DNA of 64,000 bases from Thermoanaerobaculia bacterium (GTDB lineage Bacteria > Acidobacteriota > Thermoanaerobaculia > Gp7-AA8): positions 70,786 through 134,785 of the forward strand of contig DASYJF010000114.1 of the NCBI GenBank assembly GCA_035996815.1, written 5' to 3'. The position numbers and the translations under genes are program-made. Positions 2,539 to 52,270 of this stretch are shown one piece after another (the first letter of the stretch is position 1; every line of letters starts with the position of its first letter). The notes under the pieces were generated by a model. That model was not told the DNA's origin. It did no database searches and saw only the letters and a list, made by a program, of their open reading frames with translations.

Positions 2539-3486
2539 TCAGCGTCGGGCTGAGCCAGCCGCATTTCCCCGCGCGACTGCCCGAGGCGTTCCGAACACGA
2601 GGCCTGTCTCGATCTCGGATGGCTTGCCGTCGACTATGTACGGTTTGAGTCGCCACGCTCGAAGAGCAGAGATGATGGCTTCGGACTGATCGGGGAAGGC
2701 GCTGAGGAGATGGACGTGCTTCACCCGCCCTTCGCCGTCGATGGTCACGCGGACCGGGATCGTGTTGAAGCGGCGCGTCGCCAGGTAAGGTTCGGTCTTC
2801 TCGATGACGTTGTCGCCGTGCGCGTAACCCTTCACGCAAAGCGGCGCATCACTTTCCTTCGCCAGGGAGATGCCGCTCATCGCCCGCTCGGCCGCATCGA
2901 GCGCCGCCTTGTCGCGGCCGGTGAAAGTGAACGTCAAGGCGTGGCATCGCGCGTCGGTTGAAAGTACGCGCCAATGGAGTCCGACAATCGGCGCTCCGTA
3001 TGCGACACGATAAAACGTCCGGCTGGCGATCTTCACCTCTTCCGGTCCACGCTCGATTTCGTACTGCGGCACGACTCCTCGGCGAAGAGAGGCCATCAAC
3101 TCCCTGGCCGACTGGGCGGCATTCGCACTGAAGAAGAGGTCCTGCGCCGACACCAGCACGTGGGCTTTCACTCTCTGCGGCTCGCGGTCCCAGAAGGCGA
3201 ATTGCGTCAGGACGTAGCTGCCGCCGTCGGACGGTGGAGGCCCCGCCGGCTCTTCAGTCCAGCCGGCGGGGATTGGATACGACAGGTTGAAATACGCGTT
3301 GTTGTAGCGGTCACCGGCCACCTTCCCTTCCTCCGGCAGCGGCGTCACCGAGTCGCTCGTGCCCGGCGTCGCCCCTTTGACGAGGATCACGCCGTGCGGA
3401 ACCACCGGAACCGTTCCCGCATCGACCGGCAGGCCGATGCAGATCGCGAACAGCGAGGAGAGAGAGTGCCTGGTGAGTCGCCACAT
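2539..3486 (-). CDS. secreted protein with C-terminal TonB-C (energy transducer) domain
   Basis: Signal-peptide-like N-terminus. C-terminal RVTIDGEGRV...LRAWRLKPYIVDGKP...GLVFG resembles the TonB C-terminal domain. Confidence 0.7.
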   Translation of the reverse strand: MWRLTRHSLSSLFAICIGLPVDAGTVPVVPHGVILVKGATPGTSDSVTPLPEEGKVAGDRYNNAYFNLSYPIPAGWTEEPAGPPPSDGGSYVLTQFAFWDREPQRVKAHVLVSAQDLFFSANAAQSARELMASLRRGVVPQYEIERGPEEVKIASRTFYRVAYGAPIVGLHWRVLSTDARCHALTFTFTGRDKAALDAAERAMSGISLAKESDAPLCVKGYAHGDNVIEKTEPYLATRRFNTIPVRVTIDGEGRVKHVHLLSAFPDQSEAIISALRAWRLKPYIVDGKPSEIETGLVFGTPRAVARGNAAGSARR

Positions 3487-3499
3487 AGTTCTCCCTTAC

Positions 3500-4936
3500 T
3501 TACAGTGAGCGCAGGAAGTTCAAAAGGTCCTGCTTCTCCGTATTCGCCAGAGCATTGAAGTTGAGCACCGCGGTATTGGCCTCGGAGCCGGTCGAGGAAT
3601 GCTGATCGATGGCCTTGAGAAGGTCGGGGGTCCGGCCATCGTGCAGGAGGAAGATCCGCTTCCCAAGTCCCCACAGCGGCGCCGTGCGGAACTGGTCGCC
3701 CCCCGCCGTTCCTTGCGAGACGTTGTCTGCCAGCTTGGACCCCATGTGATGAATCTCCAGGTCGCTGAACAGGTTCATCTTCTGATTGTCAAGGCTGGGC
3801 GTGATCGACGACGAGAACGAAGGGAACACGTTGTGATGGCAGACCTCGCATCCGATCTTGTTGAAGAACTCCTCCCCTTTCTTGATCGAGTCTGTCCCGC
3901 CCGGCGTGTCCGGCGATCTCTCCGGCGGAGCCAGGAGACGCATGAACATTGCGAACTGCACGGAGTCGCTCAACGTATCGATGGAGCCGACGTTGAAGTT
4001 CGTATGGTCCTCGGGCGTCGCATTGAGCTTGCACGGATTGGGAAGTCCCAGGACCCTCTCCTCTTCGGGCGTGGGATGCTCCTGGGTGAACAGCTCGTTG
4101 CTCACGCCCTGCTCGACGTTGTAGGCCTCACCGGCAAAAAGCTCCAACGACTTGTTCTGGGCCTTCCAGCCGAAGCGGGCGATCGTGCCGTCGTTGCCGT
4201 TGTGGTTGAACGTTCCGGCGATGCCGAAAGAATTGCTGGCTACTGACGCCTGGTACGACAGAAGGTCGGTCTCCTCGATGTTCTCGACGAGACCCCCTCC
4301 GAATAACGGCGTCGGAATGCGGAAGATGACGTTGTTGTGTGCGACAGCCGAGGCAAAATCGGGCTGGGAAATCACGGACGTCGTGCAGGGACCGGCGTCA
4401 CTGCGCCCGGCGATGGTGAAGAGGTCCTCGACCCCGCCGTTCGGCTGGCTGGGGATGGGATTGCCGGCCGAATCGGTAAAAAAGATGAAGCGAGCCTCAC
4501 GCACAGGGCCGCTGAGGGTGACGAACGAAGGCGGCAAGTTGACCGCGCCGTCCGCACCCGCGTCGACGATCTGCGGATTGACCGCGGGGCTGGTGCCGCC
4601 GGTGGCGGGGAAAGCGTGGCAACGGGCGCAGCCCATTGCATTGAAACGGGGGCCGAGCCCCTTGCCTTTCTCGCCGCGGATCGTTCCGTTGACGGAGTCG
4701 ACCTCCTCGAAGCGGGTCTTTGCGTCGTTGAAGAAGTTCAGGATCGTGATGGGATTGTTCGCCGCCACCGAGGCGAGCGGCCCGCCCGCTCCGGGCGGAC
4801 CACCGCGAATGCCCGGATCGGACTGAGAGAACGCCTGGAGAGCAAACAACAAGACACCGAGGGTAAGGACCGCTGTAGTGCGCGATTTCACACAGACCTC
4901 CTTGAAGGGTTGACATCTACGACCAGCCTTGGACAC
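3500..4936 (-). CDS. DUF1111-family di-haem cytochrome c peroxidase-like protein (thiol oxidoreductase-like)
   Basis: Two CxxCH haem-binding motifs (CARCH, CEVCHH) about 230 aa apart, signal peptide, about 480 aa. This architecture is typical of DUF1111. Confidence 0.8.
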   Translation of the reverse strand: MSKAGRRCQPFKEVCVKSRTTAVLTLGVLLFALQAFSQSDPGIRGGPPGAGGPLASVAANNPITILNFFNDAKTRFEEVDSVNGTIRGEKGKGLGPRFNAMGCARCHAFPATGGTSPAVNPQIVDAGADGAVNLPPSFVTLSGPVREARFIFFTDSAGNPIPSQPNGGVEDLFTIAGRSDAGPCTTSVISQPDFASAVAHNNVIFRIPTPLFGGGLVENIEETDLLSYQASVASNSFGIAGTFNHNGNDGTIARFGWKAQNKSLELFAGEAYNVEQGVSNELFTQEHPTPEEERVLGLPNPCKLNATPEDHTNFNVGSIDTLSDSVQFAMFMRLLAPPERSPDTPGGTDSIKKGEEFFNKIGCEVCHHNVFPSFSSSITPSLDNQKMNLFSDLEIHHMGSKLADNVSQGTAGGDQFRTAPLWGLGKRIFLLHDGRTPDLLKAIDQHSSTGSEANTAVLNFNALANTEKQDLLNFLRSL

Positions 4937-6054: not shown

Positions 6055-6600
6055 TCAAAACTGGGTCGTGGGTACCGGCGACGGCGCCGGGACGTGCGGC
6101 GGATCCGCTACCGTCCGGTGCTTCCGTCCGAAGCGGTTTGCTTTCCGCATCACTGCGACATGCGGAAGCAGAGCCGCGTGAGCCGGTGAGCGCACCAGAC
6201 TCTTGCTCACAGCGTACGTGAGCAACGCCGCTTCGCCGAGACGGTTGCGCCGCGTCAGGTTCGCCGAGGTGACGCCGCGCAGCATGGACCGCAGCTCGTC
6301 TTCCACCTTCGACCACCGTGCGGTCGTCTCCGCCTCCTGCTGCAGCTCCTCGGGCGTTCTTCCGACCACGCTCAGCACCACCGGAGATGCGCCGATGGCG
6401 TTGATTGCGGCTTGCGCAAACTCCGGATGCACATTGGCGGCGGGTTGGATCGCCCTCGCATCCGCCGCCGGCAGCTGCACGAATTCCGGGATCTGCTGGC
6501 GCAGCACGCGGAGCTGCTCCACGATCGATTCCGGCGTCATTACCGGGTCCCCTGCCGCCGCGGCGGCGTTCGTTTCACTAACTGCATTTTCGTTAGACAT
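6055..6600 (-). CDS. hypothetical protein, paralogue A of a duplicated unknown family (see 9600..10076)
   Basis: Strong AGGAAAGGAG ribosome-binding site before MSNENAV. The protein aligns along its length with the 9600..10076 product (shared ...RWSxVEDELxSMLRGVxxANLxRR... block and basic C-terminus). Confidence 0.55.
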   Translation of the reverse strand: MSNENAVSETNAAAAAGDPVMTPESIVEQLRVLRQQIPEFVQLPAADARAIQPAANVHPEFAQAAINAIGASPVVLSVVGRTPEELQQEAETTARWSKVEDELRSMLRGVTSANLTRRNRLGEAALLTYAVSKSLVRSPAHAALLPHVAVMRKANRFGRKHRTVADPPHVPAPSPVPTTQF

Positions 6601-7014
6601 GATGAAACTCCTTTCCTGCCCCGAAGGGCAAATGGTTATGGGACGGCGCTCGGGCTGAGTGCGCAGCTCGGACGCCGTTCCGGGATGGAACGTCTGAGCG
6701 CAACGTCGCAAACCGTTCGCTCGCCTGCCCCCACAGGCCGCGGACCTCGGGGGTTGTTATGTGGGTATGAGGCTGGAGGAGCTAACGCTCAACTCCACTT
6801 GGATCGGGGTCCTTCGCGCCTTGACACAAGCTCGAAGGACTCAGTACCTCATTCGAGTAACGGCCATTTACCACCGCCGTCTCTGGCTCAGGATTCGAGA
6901 CCCCTTGACTCAAGGATCTGCCTTTGCCTAACACAACAATATAGCTTCGTGATCACGGGATGTCAAGGGGGGTAGACGCTTTGGTAGTGGGGCAGTTTGA
7001 TGTTACGGGTTAGA

Positions 7015-7209: not shown

Positions 7210-7330
7210 GATGCTTCCGCCCCACGAACATCCTACGCCTGTTGAACCCGTGCCGCTTTGCACTCGTTATCTGGGCAAGTTTCGCCTCATTCCCGGCGCG
7301 CGTTGCCTCGCGAATGGCGACGCGTGGTCT

Positions 7331-7504
7331 CGATATCAGGAACGTTCGCCACGACATTGAAAAAAATCAGTTCGAGACTGAGAACGCGTGCCTCGATCAT
7401 GACGCCGTTGTCGCTTCGTATTGACGTGCGTTCATGATGGAACGGGCCGTTTTCACTGTCGAAGTGATTTTTTTTCAATGTCGTGGCGAACGTTCCTGAT
7501 ATCG
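7331..7504. repeat. MITE-like element: perfect 36-bp terminal inverted repeats (CGATATCAGGAACGTTCGCCACGACATTGAAAAAAA / reverse complement) flanking a 102-bp core
   Basis: 7331-7366 is the exact reverse complement of 7469-7504. The inner ends are A7 and T7 runs. Confidence 0.8.
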
Positions 7505-7595
7505 AGCTGCACGTTTCTGATAGGGAAGTGAACGTTTCTGATATCGAGCTGCACGCTTCTGATATGGAAGCGAACGTTCCCTATGTTGAAGCTCC
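7488..7595. repeat. about 2.5 tandem copies of a 42-bp unit (GAACGTTYCTGATATCGAGCTGCACGYTTCTGATAKGGAAGY) reusing the inverted-repeat-arm motif
   Basis: Direct repeats begin inside the right inverted repeat of the MITE-like element. Each unit contains an internal 21-bp sub-repeat and a GATATC palindrome. Confidence 0.75.
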
Positions 7596-7887: not shown

Positions 7888-7961
7888 TGGCTGGGAGACA
7901 GGGAGTCGAACCCCGATTGAGCGGTTCAGAGCCGCTTGTCCTACCATTGAACGATCTCCCA
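7888..7961 (-). tRNA. tRNA-Gln (anticodon CUG), CCA encoded
   Basis: The reverse complement folds as a cloverleaf: acceptor TGGGAGA/TCTCCCA, discriminator G, anticodon loop CUCUGAA, T-arm CGGGG-TTCGACT-CCCTG, then CCA. Confidence 0.8.
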
Positions 7962-8427: not shown

Positions 8428-9603
8428 TCACCACGCAAGCACCAAGTGCTTTGCCAGGTAGTACCAGAGGCTGGCGGACGTGATCAGGATGAACCACCTT
8501 GCGGGCGCGGATGACGGGATGATCAGCGCGGCGCTGACCAGGAACGCGTCGGCGAAGATGCGCAGGAAGCCGTAGTCCTCAATCCAGATCGTGTGCGGCA
8601 GGATGGAAAAGAGGGCCAGGTATCCGACCCAGGCCAGCCGCCACTCCAGCGGCGCGCGCGTCCGCCGCCACACCAGCACGATGGCGATGACGACGCCGGC
8701 CAGGAACAGACTCTCGAGGAAGTAGAGACGCTCTTGGTGATCGCGGCGCATGGACGCGGCGGCCAGGAACCGCGCGTACTCGACGAAGGGCAACGCGCGA
8801 TCGGGTGCTCCGGCCCGGAGCGGCGTGACGCCCCAACACGCGGCCAGGACGATTTGCCAGAGCGCGTAGGCCGCCATCGGAAGCGCGAACATGACGGCGT
8901 CGATGCGGCGCTCGCGGCGCAGAAGTCGGTCGGCCAGCCAGACGGCGGCCAGTGCTACGGCCAGCAGCAGCGTCGTTTCCCGCGTCAGCACCGCAGCCGT
9001 GAGCAGCAGCGCGGCCGTCACGTTGCGGCGCGAGGCGGCGGCCCAGATCGCGCCCATCGCGAACGCGGCGGCGGCGATCTCGGACAGATCGCGCGAAAAC
9101 GTCAGCACGAATCCGGGATAGAGCGGCACGATCACGCCCCACATCGCGTGCAATCCGAACTTCTTCGCGAATGCTCCGCCGAAAGCGGCCATCGCCGCGG
9201 CAGCGAGGATGTTGACGATCACGAGTAGCCACGGAATCCATTTCACGCGGCCCAGCGACAACATCCAGACGATGAACGGATAACCGATCCGTTGCTGCCG
9301 GTACGGAGGGTTATCAATCCGGATCCCGTGCGCCGCCTGCACGCGCGTGAACGGATTGATAGCCAGTCGGTAGAACCAGATTCCGTCGTAGCCGCCGATC
9401 TTCGGGATCACGGTCAGCCCGGGCGGCACTTTCGAGGCATCGACGTTTTGTCCGCCGGCGATGACGAAGAGGGAAACGTCGCCTCCTCGGGTTCTAAGCA
9501 GCAGAACGAAAAAGGCGATGTAGCAGATCGCGATCACGATCGCCGGGGTGAGCGGCGAACCGGGATTCGATCGATCTCGAAGAATCGGGCGCAGGCTCCT
9601 CAC
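8428..9603 (-). CDS. polytopic inner-membrane protein (about 10-12 TM), possibly a GT-C-like glycopolymer/cell-surface biogenesis protein
   Basis: 391-aa ORF with many hydrophobic helices. GTG start overlaps the upstream stop (GTGA). Function is inferred from topology only. Confidence 0.7.
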   Translation of the reverse strand: MRSLRPILRDRSNPGSPLTPAIVIAICYIAFFVLLLRTRGGDVSLFVIAGGQNVDASKVPPGLTVIPKIGGYDGIWFYRLAINPFTRVQAAHGIRIDNPPYRQQRIGYPFIVWMLSLGRVKWIPWLLVIVNILAAAAMAAFGGAFAKKFGLHAMWGVIVPLYPGFVLTFSRDLSEIAAAAFAMGAIWAAASRRNVTAALLLTAAVLTRETTLLLAVALAAVWLADRLLRRERRIDAVMFALPMAAYALWQIVLAACWGVTPLRAGAPDRALPFVEYARFLAAASMRRDHQERLYFLESLFLAGVVIAIVLVWRRTRAPLEWRLAWVGYLALFSILPHTIWIEDYGFLRIFADAFLVSAALIIPSSAPARWFILITSASLWYYLAKHLVLAW

Positions 9604-10076
9604 TTCGTCTTGCCGGCGGCCTTCCTGCCCTTGCCGCGGATGTGGTTTACCCGCTTCATCTCCGCGAGGTGCGGGAGCAGGTGTTGAAACTCCTTCTTCC
9701 GGACCAGTTGGCGAACGACGGCGTAGATCTGCAGAACGGCGGTGCCGACGGCGTGACGGCGCTTGAGGTTTGCAGCGCTCACGCCGCGAAGCATCGACAT
9801 TAGTTCATCTTCGACGGCGCTCCAACGCTGGGCATCGTCCCGTTGTTGCCAGAAGTCTTCGACCGGCGCGCCGATGACGCTCGGCATGCGCGGATCCGCG
9901 CCGCCGGTAATGAGAGCGGCTTCCACGAATTCGGAATTGAGATGTGCTACGCGCGTCATCGAACGCGTCTGGCGAATGGTCAACTGCTGGAACTTCGGGA
10001 TGCGCGCCCGCAGCCGGCGAAGCTCCTCCACCAGCTCCGCGGGTTCAATCGGAGTGACTTCGGGATCATCGCTCAT
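9600..10076 (-). CDS. hypothetical protein, paralogue B of the duplicated unknown family; translationally coupled to the downstream membrane protein
   Basis: Aligns with the 6055..6600 product. Its stop overlaps the start of the 8428..9603 gene by 4 bp. Confidence 0.6.
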   Translation of the reverse strand: MSDDPEVTPIEPAELVEELRRLRARIPKFQQLTIRQTRSMTRVAHLNSEFVEAALITGGADPRMPSVIGAPVEDFWQQRDDAQRWSAVEDELMSMLRGVSAANLKRRHAVGTAVLQIYAVVRQLVRKKEFQHLLPHLAEMKRVNHIRGKGRKAAGKTK

Positions 10077-10189: not shown

Positions 10190-10531
10190 TTGATGTCGCC
10201 GGCATCAACGCCATGTCCGCCGCTGCACATTTTGATGTTCTGGAACATCAATCGATAGAGCCAGACCTCCTCTGTTGATGCGGGCTACATCAACAGACCA
10301 GGACGCGGTTGACCATTTTGATGGATGCCTGCATCAACATAGGCAGGGGGTCTTCAGTACTTGATGTCGGCGACTATTCGTTTGCTGTCGAAGGCATCAA
10401 CGCAGGCCTCGCGTGATCACCAATTTGATGTCATGGACATCAACGGGCGCAGTCTTCACGTGTCTTTTGATGTCGCAAACATCAAATGGAGTGAAGTCTG
10501 CCAAAGTGCTGCGCACGAAGGATGTTTGATG
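10190..10531. promoter_or_regulatory. array of about 7.5 dyad-symmetric sites TTGATG-N7/8-CATCAA at about 43-bp periodicity in a divergent intergenic region
   Basis: Dyads at 10190-10208, 10232-10251, 10275-10293, 10318-10337, 10361-10400 (long spacer), 10425-10443 and 10467-10485, plus a half site at 10526. Centre-to-centre spacing is 42-43 bp, or 53 bp around the long-spacer site. Confidence 0.7.
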
Positions 10532-10720
10532 CCCGCCGGAACCGCGGCACCTTTCGCGAAGCTTTGGAGTGCGGTGGCGATCGAGCCACCGCTTTGGGAG
10601 GGAGGGGGAAGCGTTCCCGTCGCGCGTACGCAAGCATCACATGCTGCGTATCGTCACCATTCCACCGCCCTCCCAAAGCGGCAGCTATGCCGCGCGCACT
10701 CCAAAGTGCTGCGCACGAAA
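10499..10720. repeat. interspersed structured repeat family E (CCAAAGTGCTGCGCACGAA ... GCTTTGGAGTGCGGTGGCGATCGAGCCACCGCTTTGGGAGGG), about 1.5 copies
   Basis: Near-identical to the reverse complement of 59805-59945. Contains internal inverted repeats. Confidence 0.75.
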
Positions 10721-10824
10721 ATTGTCTCATTCGCAGCTTCGCTCCTGACACGCAGACATCCCAATCCTCCTCGATCGCAATCCGCCGTAACTTTTCTCCT
10801 CCTCGGCGGTTTAATGGGCGATTC

Positions 10825-11358
10825 ATGGATCGCGCAATCGAAGAACGTGAGCGGCTGCTGATCGAGGCCGCACAGCAGGACCCGAAGCGGTTCGCGGAGT
10901 TGTACGAGGAGAACTTCGGGCGGGTGTGGGCGTTCGTGATCAGGCGGGTAGGTGAACGCTCGGTTGCGCAGGACATTACGTCCGAGGTGTTTCATCAGGC
11001 GCTGGCGAACGTGGGGCGATTCGAATGGCGCGGGCTGCCGTTCGCGGCGTGGCTGTATCGGATTGCGGCGAATGCGATCGCCGATCACTTTGCGAAATCG
11101 GCGCGCGAGCAGAGTACCGAGGCCGAGGTAACCGTACCGCCGCATGAGATCGAAGACATTGAGCGCCGCGCGTCGCTGTATCGCTTCGTCGATCGACTTC
11201 CGGCCGAGCAACGGCGCGTGCTGGTCATGCGGTTCGCCGAGGAACGAAGCATCCGCGAAATCGCATCGGTCATCGGACGGAGCGAAGGCGCGGTCAAACA
11301 ACTTCAATGGAGAGGCCTGCAGACGTTGCGGGCCCGAATGGGTACGAATCATGGCTGA
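10825..11358 (+). CDS. ECF-family RNA polymerase sigma factor (sigma-70 regions 2 and 4)
   Basis: ERERLLIEAAQQDP..FAELYEENFGRVWAFV (region 2) and a C-terminal EQRRVLVMRF..ERSIREIASVIGRSEGAVKQL helix-turn-helix (region 4). Confidence 0.9.
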   Translation: MDRAIEERERLLIEAAQQDPKRFAELYEENFGRVWAFVIRRVGERSVAQDITSEVFHQALANVGRFEWRGLPFAAWLYRIAANAIADHFAKSAREQSTEAEVTVPPHEIEDIERRASLYRFVDRLPAEQRRVLVMRFAEERSIREIASVIGRSEGAVKQLQWRGLQTLRARMGTNHG

Positions 11359-44095: not shown

Positions 44096-45211
44096 ATGAA
44101 CGTGAACGAACAGAAGATGAAGTGGGTCGGGGTTCTGACTTGGATCATCGTCGCGATCCCGAGCGTGCTCTGGCAGGCGCAGTACCGCTCGCTGGTCGGG
44201 CCGCGCGCGGCGCTGTTGTTCACCGCCTTCATCGTTTTCATCATCGCCTTCATTTTTGGTACGCGGCCGGGTTGCGGCACCCCGACGAAGATTTCGATGC
44301 TCGTCGTCGAAACGCTTGCGGCGTACGTCTGCATCTCGATGCAGCCCACCGGCTTTCAACCCGTACTGCTCGTCATCATCGCCGCGCAGCTCGGCGCCTA
44401 CCGGCCGCGCGTCGCCATCATCGCCATCGCGATCAACTGCATCTCCCTCGGCATCATCGTTTCGGCCACCGACGGTTCGCCGGTCATCTACGCGCTCGTC
44501 TACTTTGCGTTTTCACTCTTCTCGCTTTTCTCGATGCACGTCGCGCATTCGGAGATGGAGGCGCGGAAGTCGCTGGCCGAGGCCAATGCGGAGCTGCGCA
44601 TGACCACTGAGCTGCTCGAGATCAGCAGCCGTACCTCGGAACGCCTCCGCATCGCCCGCGATCTCCACGATCTCCTCGGACATCACCTCACGGCGCTGAG
44701 CCTCAATCTCGAAGTGGCCGGCCATCTCGCCTCGGGCGACGCGAAGGAGTCGATCGAGAAGAGCAAGTCGATTGCGAAGCACCTCCTCGCCGACGTTCGC
44801 GACGTCGTCAGCCGTCTTCGCAATGACGAACCGGTCGATCTGACGTCGTCGCTCGAATCATTGCGCGATGTGATCGTCGCGCCGTCGCTCCATCTCGACT
44901 TTCCGGGCGAGCTCGCCGTCGCCGATGCGAACATCGCGGAAGTGGCGCTGCGAACGGTGCAGGAAATCGTGACGAACGCGGTCCGCCACTCCGGGGCCCG
45001 CAATCTCTGGCTGAACCTCGGCACGGCCGATCACACTCTGTCGATCGATGCCCGCGACGACGGCGTCGGCGCCGACAACATCAGCTTCGGCAACGGCCTC
45101 CTCGGCCTTCGCGAGCGCGTGCAGCAGGCGCGCGGAACGTTCGAGGTGACGTCGATGCGCGGCCGCGGCTTCTCGCTCCACGTGACGCTTCCGCTCGGAG
45201 CCGCCGCGTGA
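44096..45211 (+). CDS. sensor histidine kinase, NarL-type (HisKA_3 + HATPase_c), polytopic N-terminal sensor
   Basis: H-box RIARDLHDLLGHHLTAL and ATPase N/G boxes (NAVRHSGA...GNGLLGLRERV). Confidence 0.85.
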   Translation: MNVNEQKMKWVGVLTWIIVAIPSVLWQAQYRSLVGPRAALLFTAFIVFIIAFIFGTRPGCGTPTKISMLVVETLAAYVCISMQPTGFQPVLLVIIAAQLGAYRPRVAIIAIAINCISLGIIVSATDGSPVIYALVYFAFSLFSLFSMHVAHSEMEARKSLAEANAELRMTTELLEISSRTSERLRIARDLHDLLGHHLTALSLNLEVAGHLASGDAKESIEKSKSIAKHLLADVRDVVSRLRNDEPVDLTSSLESLRDVIVAPSLHLDFPGELAVADANIAEVALRTVQEIVTNAVRHSGARNLWLNLGTADHTLSIDARDDGVGADNISFGNGLLGLRERVQQARGTFEVTSMRGRGFSLHVTLPLGAAA

Positions 45212-45849
45212 TCCGCATCTGCATCGTCGAAGATCAGACCATCGTCCGCCAGGGTCTGCGCAGCCTGCTCGCGCTCGTGCCCGACATCGAAGTCGTCGCC
45301 GAGGCCAGTGACGGCGAGGAAGCGGTCGAGGTGATCGAGCGCGAGAAGCCGGACGTCGTCCTGCTCGACCTGCGCATGCCGAAACTCGACGGCGTCGGCG
45401 TCCTGCGCACGCTGCGCGAACGCAACGCCGCGCGCCCGACGCTGATCCTGACGACGTTCGACGACGACGCGATTTTGTTCGAAGCCGTCCGCGCTGGCGC
45501 GAAAGGCTGGTTGCTGAAGGACGTTTCGCTCGAACGCCTCGCCGGCGCAATCCGCACGCTCGCCGACGGAGGCACCTGCATCGAACCGGTCATCACCGAA
45601 CGGATCATGCGCGCGCTGGAAAAGAGCGATTCGTCATTCGAATCCGCCGACCTCCCCGAGCCGCTCACCGACCGCGAACGAACCATCCTCCGCCTCCTCG
45701 CCGGCGGTTACAGCAATCACGAAATAGGAGAGTTGCTGAACATCACCGAGGGAACGGTTAAGAATCACATCTCGAATCTGCTGTCGAAGCTGGGCGTGCG
45801 CGATCGAACGCGCGCGGTGTTGCGGGCGATTGATCTAGGTGTGATTTAG
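45208..45849 (+). CDS. response regulator, NarL/LuxR family
   Basis: Receiver D54 context (VVLLDLRMP). C-terminal LuxR helix-turn-helix (LTDRERTILRLLAGGYSNHEIGELLNITEGTVKNHI). Confidence 0.9.
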   Translation: MIRICIVEDQTIVRQGLRSLLALVPDIEVVAEASDGEEAVEVIEREKPDVVLLDLRMPKLDGVGVLRTLRERNAARPTLILTTFDDDAILFEAVRAGAKGWLLKDVSLERLAGAIRTLADGGTCIEPVITERIMRALEKSDSSFESADLPEPLTDRERTILRLLAGGYSNHEIGELLNITEGTVKNHISNLLSKLGVRDRTRAVLRAIDLGVI

Positions 45850-46052
45850 CCAGGCATCAATGAGCACGAACACTCTTGCCGGGGTCGATCGGTACTTTTC
45901 CCGTCTAACCCTGCTCGCACATCTGTGGCCTTGGCACTTGAGTGCAATGCACGCAGATTCGCGGTGCGGACGCTCAGTCACGCGTTCGTGACCGTCGGTA
46001 CATAGCGTGGACCGGTCGTAACGGACTGCAAGACAATGGGTTACACGACGAG

Positions 46053-46575
46053 GGACGTCACGTCCCACGGTGTGTGACGTCGCGCCCCGCGGTGCGGGCG
46101 TCGCGTCACACAGTGTGTTACGTCGCGCCCCGCGGTGCGGGCGTCGCGTCACACAGTGTGTTACGTCGCGCCCCGCGGTGCGGGCGTCGCGTCACACAGT
46201 GTGTTACGTCGCGTCCCGCGGTGCGGGCGTCGAGTCACACAGTGTGTTACGTCGCGTCCCGCGGTGCGGGCGTCGCGTCCCACGGTGTGTTACGTCGCGT
46301 CCCGCGGTGCGGGCGTCGAGTCACACAGTGTGTTACGTCGCGTCCGGCGGTGCGGGCGTCGCGTCCCACGGTGTGTTACGTCGCGTCCCGCGGTGCGGGC
46401 GTCGAGTCACACAGTGTGTTACGTCGCGTCCCGCGGTGCGGGCGTCGAGTCACACAGTGTGTTACGTCGCGTCCCGCGGTGCGGACGTCGGGTCCCCACG
46501 GTGTGTGACGTCGCTTCCCGCGGTGCGGAGGTCGCGTCCCACGGTGTGTGACGTCGCGTCCCGCGGTGCGGGCGC
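46053..46575. repeat. 43-bp minisatellite, about 12 tandem units (GTGTGTTACGTCGCGCCCCGCGGTGCGGGCGTCGCGTCACACA and variants), each unit hairpin-capable
   Basis: Exact 43-nt period counted. Unit variants differ at 2-4 positions. No unique spacers. Confidence 0.9.
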
Positions 46576-46694
46576 CCTGGCTGCGCGACAAGCACGTCAT
46601 CTTGCTCGAACTGAATCGACCGTCGATTCACGTTCGATGGTGCGCCGCGCGGCCTGATCAAAGACTTCCGGCCCGAACTGCCGCTGTTGATCCG

Positions 46695-47690
46695 CTACTG
46701 AAGCCGGAAATTCACGGTCACCGTGTAGTACACATCGATCGGCTCGCCCCGGACCGTGGCGGGGCGGAAGTGCCACTGGCTGACGGCATCGCGAGCGGCG
46801 TCGCCGAGGCCGTAGGGGAGATCGCGGATGACTTCGACGTTGTCGATGGTCCCATCGCGGCGGACGATCCCGCGGACGACGACAGGCCCCTGGATCCCGG
46901 CGCGGCGCGCCATCATCGGATAGCGCGGTACGACGCGATCGGTCTCCTCCGGCTGCGTTCCGCCAGCCGGCACCGCGGAGTAAACGCCGCCGTTATCCGT
47001 CGCTACATGCACCGGGGCTGGCGCGGTTTCGGTGGGCGGCTGCGGCTCGCTTTCCGGCGGCGAGGCGGCGGATGTCGTCGCAGCGGTGTCGGTCGCAGTC
47101 GTATCGGTATGGACTTCGACCTGACGCGTTCCGGCGGAACTGACATCGATCGCATCAACATCGGCGTAGGCGATCTGGTTGTCGTGAGCGAGCGCGTAGA
47201 AATCGTGGTCGCGCGTGTAGACCTTCACCTGCGTCTCCGCGGACAGCTCGCCGATGATCGGATAGAAGATGCCCGGGCCGGCGTAGAGCGGCGTGCGCGC
47301 GCTGACGATGGCGTTGAGCGCCGGCAGCTTGCGGATCGTTTCGTAGCGCGCCAGGCGGCGCTCGCGCTCGGATGTCCGCTCCAGCGAGTTGCGCTCCGCC
47401 CAGCCGGTCATGCCGTCGTCGTCCTGCACGCGAACCCATGCGCCGCGGTCTTCGAGCACGATGAGCTTCTCGCCGTTGGTCGCGGTTGCGACGACGGGCG
47501 AATTCGCCGTCGGCTGCGTGCGGAGCCGGAGACGTAGCGCAAGCACCGACAGGTTTTCCGATGTGGGCGGCGGCGCGTCGTCGTGTTTTCCGCTGCGCAG
47601 AATCAGCAGCGCCAGCAGCGCGAAAAAAATCACGCCGAGGATGATGACGACGGTCAGGCCGCGCGTGTGCCGGGTTTGTGCGTCAGGCAT
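46695..47690 (-). CDS. TonB-family protein (N-terminal TM, SH3-like middle domain, Pro-rich linker, TonB-C domain)
   Basis: N-terminal transmembrane helix. C-terminal VVPRYP..ARRAGIQGPVVVRGIVRRDGTIDNVEVI..P.GL is the TonB-C signature. Confidence 0.8.
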   Translation of the reverse strand: MPDAQTRHTRGLTVVIILGVIFFALLALLILRSGKHDDAPPPTSENLSVLALRLRLRTQPTANSPVVATATNGEKLIVLEDRGAWVRVQDDDGMTGWAERNSLERTSERERRLARYETIRKLPALNAIVSARTPLYAGPGIFYPIIGELSAETQVKVYTRDHDFYALAHDNQIAYADVDAIDVSSAGTRQVEVHTDTTATDTAATTSAASPPESEPQPPTETAPAPVHVATDNGGVYSAVPAGGTQPEETDRVVPRYPMMARRAGIQGPVVVRGIVRRDGTIDNVEVIRDLPYGLGDAARDAVSQWHFRPATVRGEPIDVYYTVTVNFRLQ

Positions 47691-50248: not shown

Positions 50249-50662
50249 CTACTTCGAGACCAGCGCCGCAGGGCGGAAGGCAATCTCCGGAAACGCTTTC
50301 AACAGCGCAGCGTCGAAGGTAGCAAGCGGGAGGTGCTCACGAGCTGCCAGCTCGACAAACAGCGTGTCGTAAACGGCGACCTTGGAGAGATGCGCGCGAA
50401 CCAGCGCACCCTGCCACAGGGTGTGGATCGGGACGACGTGAATGCCCAGGCCCCACGCCAACGTCAGCCGGTTCACAGCGTCATCGACACTGAGAATCTG
50501 GTGACGAGTTGCCATCCAGATAGCATTGGCAAATTCCGCCTCCCAGAGCGCAGGAGCCCAGGCTTCATCCAGCAGAGCCATAAACTCCCGAGTTTCTTGA
50601 ATGAACGGCTCTGTGCCGAGGACGAAATAGGCGATGACGTTCGTATCGACGACGGCGTTCAC
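50249..50662 (-). CDS. vapC: PIN-domain ribonuclease toxin of a type II toxin-antitoxin pair
   Basis: N-terminal VVDTNV (PIN Asp) followed by conserved acidic residues. 4-bp overlap with the upstream antitoxin. Confidence 0.8.
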   Translation of the reverse strand: MNAVVDTNVIAYFVLGTEPFIQETREFMALLDEAWAPALWEAEFANAIWMATRHQILSVDDAVNRLTLAWGLGIHVVPIHTLWQGALVRAHLSKVAVYDTLFVELAAREHLPLATFDAALLKAFPEIAFRPAALVSK

Positions 50663-50886
50663 GAACGACCGAATCCGATCCAGGCGTCAACCTCTTTGAC
50701 AGTGGGTCGCCGTGTCTGCCGCGCCCATCCTGCTTCGATCTGCGCCAGCACAGACCGCCGTTCCGCGAGATGTGCTTCCAGCACCTCGCGCAGCTCCTGC
50801 TCCATGGAATGGCGCCGGCTCCGCGCCAGAGCCTTGAGAGACTTGACGACTTGATTCGGGACGTTGCGAATGGTGAGTGTCGGCAT
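50659..50886 (-). CDS. vapB: ribbon-helix-helix/FitA-like VapB antitoxin
   Basis: MPTLTIRNVPNQVVKSLKALA is a typical FitA/VapB N-terminus. Overlaps vapC. Confidence 0.7.
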   Translation of the reverse strand: MPTLTIRNVPNQVVKSLKALARSRRHSMEQELREVLEAHLAERRSVLAQIEAGWARQTRRPTVKEVDAWIGFGRS

Positions 50887-50937
50887 CGCTGCTCCGTGCA
50901 GGCACTATGCTAGCAAATTCAGCCGATATTCAGTTCG

Positions 50938-52058: not shown

Positions 52059-52270
52059 AGTGGTTAGTGGCCAGTGGTTAGTGGCCAGTGGTCAGGAAGG
52101 CAATGAGTGGTCAACTGGCGACGGTGAGGTAGGAATGAGCGGTTAGTCGCCGGTGAAGGGCGCGATCATCATCACTGACCACTGACCACTGACCACTGAC
52201 CACTGACCACTGACCACTGACCACTGACCACTGGCCACTGACCACTGGCCACTAACCACTGGCCACTAAC
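52059..52270. repeat. long imperfect inverted repeat whose right arm is an octamer microsatellite (CCACTGAC) of about 8 units plus GGCCACTAACCACT variants
   Basis: Left arm 52059-52097 (GTGGTTAGTGGCCAGTGG...) is complementary to the right arm 52173-52270. It lies in the divergent region between the 51358..52047 gene and ykgJ. Confidence 0.85.

Follow-up and report, generated by a model that had tools for sequence, protein, structure and literature searches.

What is the nature, and what could be the origin, of a tandem array of 43-bp units that lies between two convergent genes, one for a response regulator and one for a TonB protein, in the genome of a Thermoanaerobaculia bacterium (phylum Acidobacteriota)? 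The stretch analyzed (contig DASYJF010000114.1, positions 70,786–134,785; 64,000 nucleotides, hereafter the window, with positions counted from its first nucleotide) was compared with genome, metagenome, virus and plasmid collections. We conclude, with considerable reservation, that the array is probably an ectopic ("orphan") copy of a clade-specific family of palindromic minisatellites from soil Thermoanaerobaculia, which turns over by slippage and in this case sits at a rearrangement junction. The first-pass annotation missed the multi-locus family, its home upstream of a promoter, and the position of the window copy at a break of synteny.

Analysis of the window with Tandem Repeats Finder (TRF) delineates an array at 46056–46574 with a period of 43, 12.0 copies, 93% matches, 0% indels and a score of 840, which bears out the head-to-tail arrangement of about 12 units described initially. 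In the 43-nt register, three identical units are followed by alternating near-identical variants and then by three more diverged units, one of which (starting at 46470) is 44 nt long. Patterns representing the two halves of the unit (see below) each produce 11–12 matches within the array, compared with 0.03 and 0.00 expected from dinucleotide shuffles, and none, at up to 3 mismatches, elsewhere in the 64-kb window. The array sequence is identical in the source contig (L008). The exact TonB protein is encoded in a Joint Genome Institute (JGI) contig, Ga0372940_0000050 (122.9 kb, sample 3300035671), which shows no difference from the window in the 11.4 kb compared, and in a 5.8-kb contig from sample 3300041409 (L009) that ends inside the array. 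In this second sample, the unit variants come in the same order as in the window, the rare CCGGCGG unit included, but the array is shorter by one 43-bp unit. No exact repeat within the array exceeds 94 nt, which assemblers with k ≥ 95 can resolve; together with the shared order of variants, this indicates that the array is real. The check for an artefact that had been proposed, recovery from independent assemblies, thus came out in favor of the array, whereas the anticipated copy-number variation is a less clear case: the missing unit fits the prediction, but assembly error may account for the difference, which points either to a polymorphism or to a slight uncertainty in the exact copy number.

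The 43-nt repeat originally recognized is genuine but is not the basic unit of the array. Splitting at the CGTCG anchors resolves the 43-mer into two related half-units, of 22 nt and 21 nt, that are identical in 15 of 22 positions; the basic unit is accordingly 21/22 bp, and the 43-mer is a dimer. The 22-nt half-unit carries a CACAC stem (CGTCG[C/A]G-TCACAC-AGT-GTGTTA) and the 21-nt half-unit carries a CCCGC stem (CGTCGCG-[T/C]CCCGC-GGT-GCGGG). The ancestral 22-bp consensus derived from the related arrays is CGTCGCG-TCACAC-GGT-GTGTGA, in which an 8-nt arm, CGTCACAC, alternates with its complement, GTGTGACG, with 3-nt spacers GGT and TCG, yielding a dyad center every 11 bp and a 19-bp palindrome every 21–22 bp (about two helical turns). 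The 21-nt half-unit departs from this consensus by a compensated stem (CACAC/GTGTG to CCCGC/GCGGG) and by a 1-nt deletion in the right arm; this deletion is the cause of the 43-bp period, with which like-type palindromes recur in the window array. Both dyads named in the first-pass annotation, CCCGC-GGT-GCGGG and GTCACAC-A-GTGTKAC, were recovered. The orientation is uniform in 24 of the 24 half-units of the window array, and the arrangement is head-to-tail in every related array as well.

Stem statistics were collected from 92 half-units of five arrays. The 8-bp stem is 86% Watson-Crick, and variable positions of the left and right arms are associated (odds ratio about 12; p = 5e-7 when every unit is counted and 0.005 to 0.0009 when only distinct unit types are); mismatched "recombinant" combinations of arms are common. 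Folded as single-stranded DNA, a 43-mer reaches −13.3 kcal/mol (z = −2.9 against shuffles), with a similar result for the other strand, and folding beats shuffles to a comparable extent on both strands (z = −2.9 to −3.6). Wobble asymmetry, which would indicate an RNA structure, is not significant (27 G.T against 17 A.C, p = 0.17), and a search of Rfam at gathering thresholds with the window and four related loci produced nothing relevant.

The array opens long phantom open reading frames (ORFs) because the central units have GTGTTAC in place of the family sequence GTGTGAC and thereby lose TGA, the sole stop on the plus strand; the two ORFs noted at the outset (45942–46508 and 46070–46657) exist, as does a third one (46135–46551). 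The source annotation calls no genes within the array, and a coding reading was rejected given that comparison of the phantom-ORF translation with a protein database gave two matches only, both of which are themselves translated arrays (L019 and L020). The characterization of the element as a non-coding, hairpin-capable minisatellite between convergent genes is therefore supported. Exact unit patterns searched against 185,579 species genomes (the source species is not among these) gave chance matches within coding sequences only. The hairpin core produced 7 single matches in these genomes, two of which, from Gemmatimonadota metagenome-assembled genomes (MAGs), fall within coding sequences, and a homologous array was found at 0 of the 3 matches checked. 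No copies of the palindrome with up to 3 mismatches in 17 were detected outside arrays in the window or the fetched loci, and a metagenome scan with exact unit patterns gave matches that fell in arrays. Viral contigs, plasmid records and phage records yielded no array match, and we found no paper that combines Thermoanaerobaculia with tandem repeats.

The related arrays reveal where the family is at home. The metagenome scan identified arrays in L016/L017 and L018, the protein search with the phantom ORF added those in L019 and L020, and three more (L029, L030 and L031) were recovered by looking up orthologues of p191, a conserved 191-aa protein encoded next to the arrays; altogether, homologous arrays are present in at least 8 independent assemblies. 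The TonB and p191 homologues are labeled at the source as coming from Thermoanaerobaculia/Acidobacteriota MAGs. The L019 array (22 bp × 20.4) lies on a different contig, of 190 kb, in the sample that also yielded the window. In L029 (p191 90% identical), an array of at least 6 units of 43 bp lies at the contig end, and its TRF consensus is the same as that of the window array (43/43 after rotation); L030 (84%) has a 22/43-bp array, and L031 (76%) has 12.9 units of 22 bp in which the arms are those of the family and the linker CTCTCGG and the loop ACC differ. Home-locus copy numbers range from about 6 to 20 units, these counts being approximate as they come from short-read metagenome assemblies, and contigs often terminate inside arrays (L009, L017, L018, L029).

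In 6 of the 6 loci with a p191 at least 76% identical or a right flank 91–94% identical, the order is array, promoter, leader, p191. The distance from the array to a near-consensus sigma-70 promoter is 70–250 nt, and that from the array end to the −35 hexamer is 78–122 nt. The right flanks of L016/17, L019 and L020 are 91–94% identical to one another, and in these loci the promoter (TTGACA-N17-AGAATA or TACAAT) follows about 70 nt past the last good unit. Downstream of the promoter come a leader of about 300–310 nt, an AAGGAGG ribosome-binding site, and the 191-aa ORF with a terminator of its own. Two distant p191 orthologues, L033 (70%) and L032 (64%), keep the promoter and the leader and have no palindromic array; hence, the presence of the array just ahead of the p191 promoter is specific to a clade. 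These comparisons establish both the anatomy of the array family and its promoter-upstream home. Two candidates were discarded: the 21-bp repeats upstream of the p191 orthologue in L032 lie within or beside a called 175-aa gene (3012–3539, minus strand), are probably heptad-coding, and were not counted as a further array; and the window segment 59986–63119, considered as an orthologue of L017 given that both have a 691-aa ORF, turned out to encode an ankyrin protein and a GreA-domain protein.

The class contains more than 770 homologues of the p191 protein, and single genomes encode several paralogues. The p191 protein has no match to a family, or any useful match, in Pfam, NCBIfam or PHROG; its structure model is all-helical and has no significant structural match. 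The leader (L019:6286–6590, L029:341–644, L030:4697–5003, L031:4700–5003, and also L032:3690–4000 and L033:3700–4000), at about 310 nt, is conserved beyond the protein, with long invariant stretches between loci whose proteins are 76% identical. Its predicted fold consists of several hairpins, the last of which pairs with the AAGGAGG ribosome-binding site, and Rfam has no match to it even at E up to 1; we consider this leader a candidate for a new, riboswitch-like cis-regulatory RNA. In L033 (5198–8615), the p191 orthologue adjoins a type I-C CRISPR-Cas operon (Cas3, Cas5d, Csd1), and the presence of Cas, TIR, PIN, methylase and RHS genes near p191 suggests that this gene tends towards variable, defence-island-like regions.

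On the left, the home-locus arrays border on different genes: L017 has a truncated NarL-type regulator, L019 has a split AhpC, and still others are present in L020/L030 and L031. The right flank is conserved. The genes on the left of two of these arrays look damaged, either by real decay or by sequencing frameshifts: AhpC is split into two ORFs (L019:5074–5682), and the NarL-type regulator lacks the first ~45 residues of the receiver domain, with stop codons upstream (L017:510–1150).

Among the copies whose right flank can be read, the window array alone is not followed by p191 (the right flank of L018 is cut by the contig end). The region 45500–47000 contains neither a p191 homologue nor any site resembling a promoter or a terminator, and no promoter or gene start that a change of length could switch, as in the contingency locus envisaged in the first-pass annotation, lies beside the array. 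The gap between the response regulator and the convergent TonB gene, estimated previously at about 850 bp, measures 845 bp (Table 1). In six readable contigs that encode a regulator protein 100% identical to that of the window (DNA 90–93% identical), the sequences diverge right after the regulator stop codon, leading to toxin-antitoxin or other genes and to no array. On the other side, TonB orthologues (86–92% identity) retain similarity up to the TonB stop codon, beyond which come AP_endonuc_2 and Iso_dh, again with no array. Because similarity ends at both stop codons, the whole 845-bp spacer is lineage-specific and joins blocks that are not adjacent in relatives. The spacer flanks do not resemble the flanks of the other arrays save for a 14-nt match, which may be a remnant of the p191 locus or a chance occurrence. 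Seven contigs, obtained from different samples, share the response-regulator protein (45208–45849, compared with L010–L015) at 100% identity; all the DNA differences in the six readable contigs are synonymous, indicating unusually strong purifying selection. The gene content downstream of this regulator differs in every lineage.

Table 1 Features of the window relevant to the array and to p191
Feature	Coordinates	Strand	Context or description	Basis
Tandem array	46056..46574	+	12 x 43 bp = 24 alternating half-units	TRF, 43-nt register, shuffle controls
Representative 43-bp superunit	46212..46254	+	21-nt CCCGC-stem half-unit, then 22-nt CACAC-stem half-unit	
HisKA_3 histidine kinase	44096..45211	+	operon with response regulator	
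NarL/LuxR-type response regulator (Response_reg + GerE)	45208..45849	+	reads towards the array	
Left spacer	45850..46055	.	lineage-specific	sequence comparison
Right spacer	46575..46694	.	lineage-specific	sequence comparison
14-nt exact match, CCGGCCCGAACTGC	46668..46681	+	matches segment just downstream of p191-locus arrays	E ~0.003, very small search space
TonB_C + SH3 protein gene	46695..47690	-	convergent on the array	
p191 paralogue, 34% identical	9600..10076	-		tblastn, alignment
Second p191 paralogue, 36% identical	6055..6711	-	promoter TTGACA-17-TATATT at 6966-6938	tblastn

The units of an array evolve in concert, and turnover by gain and loss of units combined with homogenization is in part directly visible: the edge units of the array are diverged, the interior units are identical to each other, and the second sample has one unit fewer. 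The hairpin-prone alternating arms would promote replication slippage and unequal exchange, sustaining the arrays and keeping them homogeneous and variable in length, and the arrays may serve as substrates or hot spots for rearrangement; the latter property would explain the position of the window array in a spacer where synteny ends at two stop codons. As such a copy, the window array most likely has no dedicated regulatory target, and its sole effect at this locus would probably be passive, through stable hairpins or protein-binding palindromes placed between convergent transcription units.

Several observations weigh against an orphan copy that evolves by slippage. Neither the rearrangement partner (AP_endonuc_2 and Iso_dh, the genes after TonB in relatives) nor a reciprocal junction turned up in the window. 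The L031 array retains the arms and the 22-bp period but has a wholly different linker and loop, a pattern more like that of selection acting on the palindromes than of neutral drift, and the array persists at one locus across 76–90% identity of the p191 protein. The neighborhoods of p191 vary on both sides (toxin-antitoxin, TIR, methylase, Cas), so that the differences among left flanks need not stem from the arrays. Furthermore, NarL-type response-regulator genes read into the array in 2 of about 6 distinct left contexts, an adjacency for which we estimate a chance probability of ~5e-4 under our own assumption that such genes comprise ~0.6% of the genome, and which hints at a protein-DNA relationship; the regulator on the left of the array in L016/L017 is a different protein, 33% identical to the window regulator.

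The strongest of the alternatives, unlikely as we consider it, draws on the same observations and holds that the array is a phased series of operators: 19-bp palindromes bound by a dimeric protein, either a NarL/LuxR-type regulator, such as the one encoded just before the array, or a p191-linked factor, with sites every 21.5 or 43 bp that build a cooperative complex upstream of the p191 promoter, the window copy being a sink, a decoy or a remnant. Palindromes of 17–19 bp suit dimers of GerE-type helix-turn-helix proteins. The retention of the arms and of the period in L031 despite the replaced spacers, the home position, which is upstream of the promoter and not transcribed from it, the NarL-type left neighbor in both the window and L016/L017, and palindrome spacing by whole helical turns (21–22 bp, and 43 bp for like-type palindromes) all speak for such sites. 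So do the arrangements near the two p191 paralogues of the window. Directly upstream of the paralogue at 9600–10076, within 10190–10490, there are eight TTGATG-N7-CATCAA palindromes (starts at 10190, 10233, 10275, 10318, 10382, 10425 and 10467, and a half-site at 10361), which are not in tandem, have unique, non-repetitive spacers, and are spaced by 42–43 bp, a phasing like that of the array and an organization typical of protein-binding sites; this looks like a phased operator array. The second paralogue, at 6055–6711, has a near-consensus promoter and is preceded, about 400–600 nt upstream of this promoter, by repeats at 7329–7592: a perfect 38-nt inverted repeat (7329–7366/7469–7506) and, after it, repeats with a 21/42-bp period at 7486–7592, including four 21-bp direct repeats at 7488–7592.

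The first-pass annotation had pointed to these periodicities and suspected a common constraint. The periodicities are real at both sites, and the presence of 21/42–43-bp-phased repeats at p191 paralogues gives the suspicion some substance, tightly for the palindromes at 10190, directly upstream of a paralogue, and more loosely for the repeats at 7488, about 520 nt from the promoter of the second one. The palindromes at 10190–10490 are located between the p191 paralogue and a divergent gene for an ECF-like (extracytoplasmic function) sigma factor (10522–11358); this paralogue is co-operonic with a gene for an AZOBR_p60025-like cell-surface glycopolymer protein (8428–9603), and a tRNA gene (7891–7961, minus strand) lies near the repeats at 7329–7592.

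Against operators of this kind, no binding protein was identified, and p191 itself has an all-helical model with no significant structural match and belongs to no Pfam, NCBIfam or PHROG family. Distant p191 orthologues maintain the promoter and the leader and do without the array, which is therefore dispensable for the p191 promoter; arrays are missing from the contigs with the identical regulator protein; the rest of the window, the region before the operon of the regulator included, has no copy of the palindrome at up to 3 mismatches; and many units have mismatches in the arms. A related idea, which we hold to be doubtful, is that the arrays are the DNA part of an undescribed p191-specific regulatory or architectural system with a dedicated dimeric protein, possibly of the NarL type, that would bind cooperatively, the window array being a functional second binding locus; each p191 paralogue would then possess a set of 19-bp (6-7-6) palindromes, phased by 21.5 or 43 bp and placed ahead of a strong promoter with a long structured leader.

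Less probable again is an array of RNA hairpins akin to repetitive extragenic palindromes (REPs) and bacterial interspersed mosaic elements (BIMEs), where a read-through transcript would form stem-loops that terminate, insulate or protect the 3' end of the mRNA. The predominance of Watson-Crick pairs, the two compensatory stem variants, the association between arms and the excess folding stability are as expected of such hairpins, and in all identifiable cases (the window, L017, L019 and L031) the left neighbor is co-directional, with the array just past its 3' end, whereas L018, L020, L029 and L030 are uninformative in this respect; REPs, too, favor the space between convergent and unidirectional genes (PMC3733652). 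Nevertheless, 45850–46700 contains no hairpin followed by a T/U tract, that is, no intrinsic terminator, and no terminator-like site; the fold is equally good on both strands; G.T pairs are not significantly more frequent than A.C; mismatched recombinant arms are common; the main family shows conservation of the loops and the linker, beyond the needs of a pure structure element; and no Rfam family matches.

The format of 12 × 43-bp direct repeats is also that of sopC, the partition centromere of the F plasmid, where a ParB-like protein binds to an inverted repeat present in every repeat (PMC3177203). Numerically, the architectures are identical; a centromere of this type is very improbable here all the same. 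The true period of the array is 21/22 bp, no similarity to plasmid or phage records was detected, and no ParA, ParB or Rep is encoded among the 46 ORFs scanned in the window or appears in the Pfam lists of the related loci; partition, replication, transposase and integrase genes are all missing from these 46 ORFs. The gene content is chromosomal and housekeeping (lipid A and Kdo genes, FabH, arginine decarboxylase, OTCase, GreA), and the neighbors of the array include the two-component system, an ABC/FtsX transporter, TonB, OTCase and similar genes. Finally, a repeat collapsed or expanded during metagenome assembly can practically be dismissed: contigs that end inside arrays and the one-unit difference in L009 leave the exact copy number somewhat uncertain, but the ordered variants shared by two samples, the 94-nt limit on exact repeats and the homologous arrays in the independent assemblies argue against it.

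Two other features of the window deserve mention. A heptamer microsatellite (CACTGAC × 13.6, 52173–52267, 92% match) lies beside 14-bp and 33-bp repeats (52059–52155); this repeat cluster (52059–52267) is intergenic, between a conserved gene for a 231-aa protein and a CxxCxxCC gene, and could be a length-variable promoter region. A FitA-like RHH/PIN toxin-antitoxin pair lies between MoaE and NUDIX (~50250–50900; L008:1243–1880) and is absent in the otherwise syntenic relatives L021 and L028.

The array family is previously undescribed, and the repeat families of uncultured soil Acidobacteria are essentially uncharted. Its unusual features are the alternating-arm unit that is strictly head-to-tail, the heterodimeric 43-bp superunit with compensatory stems, and the conserved position ahead of a single gene family. 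Should the arrays be no more than selfish DNA driven by slippage, they would be useful as hypervariable strain markers and would help explain contig breakpoints in metagenomes of this lineage; if, instead, they are bound by protein, they would represent a new phased-operator architecture and a clue to the function of the unannotated, widespread p191 and its riboswitch-like leader.

Among the known repeats, those of the REP/BIME class are present in tens to thousands of dispersed copies per genome, many of them singletons or dimers; the association with RAYT (REP-associated tyrosine transposase, Y1) is limited to GTAG-type REPs. The class includes a "CGTC-tagged" superfamily (Di Nocera et al. 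2013, PMC3733652; Ton-Hoang et al. 2012, PMC3333891), in which the terminal tag is unpaired, the loop is 4–5 nt long and a CCA tail is present (PMC3733652); clusters of REPs are mostly head-to-head dimers, head-to-tail dimers being "negligible," and Acidobacteria are not among the phyla in which CGTC REPs have been reported. Like these elements, the array consists of short (~20–40 bp), GC-rich, imperfect palindromes that are extragenic and clustered between convergent or co-directional genes, in this case one 19-bp palindrome per 21/22-bp unit in an intergenic region; it has CGTC at the 5' edge of the palindrome and an 8-bp stem, as in CGTC-1/2 REPs. In contrast to them, it is strictly head-to-tail, with no inverted unit pairs; no dispersed single copies were found in the window, in the fetched loci or in the exact-pattern scans of the collections; the CGTC is base-paired, comprising the outer 4 bp of the 8-bp arm, the loops are of 3 nt (GGT/AGT), and there is no CCA tail; and no Y1_Tnp is encoded among the 46 ORFs or appears in the Pfam lists of neighbors at the related loci.

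A second relevant class is that of variable number tandem repeats (VNTRs), exemplified by the mycobacterial interspersed repetitive units (MIRUs), which are intergenic head-to-tail repeats of tens of bp at several loci, with strain-variable copy numbers and concerted evolution within arrays. The array shares with these the head-to-tail, intergenic, non-coding unit of 10–100 bp and the presence of one unit family at several loci; it differs in that the unit consists of alternating inverted arms (a palindrome every 11 + 11 bp), that the home is upstream of the promoter of one gene, and that it is neither operon-embedded nor accompanied by small coupling ORFs. Further arrays that invite comparison are the parC/ParR centromeres and the 22-bp iterons of R6K. 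The array has in common with sopC the 12 × 43-bp direct repeats with inverted repeats, and with this group of arrays the phasing by whole helical turns, and the home array lies upstream of a promoter as in parC-type centromeres, but the array is chromosomal, is not linked to partition or replication genes, and has neither sequence similarity nor a known binder. CRISPR arrays differ in having unique spacers, whereas here the units directly abut. The closest counterparts of the array are thus REP/BIME and intergenic VNTRs: it lacks the defining features of REPs, and it fits a VNTR by its head-to-tail, non-coding units, with copy numbers that may vary between samples, but adds to this the alternating-arm unit and the conserved home upstream of a promoter.

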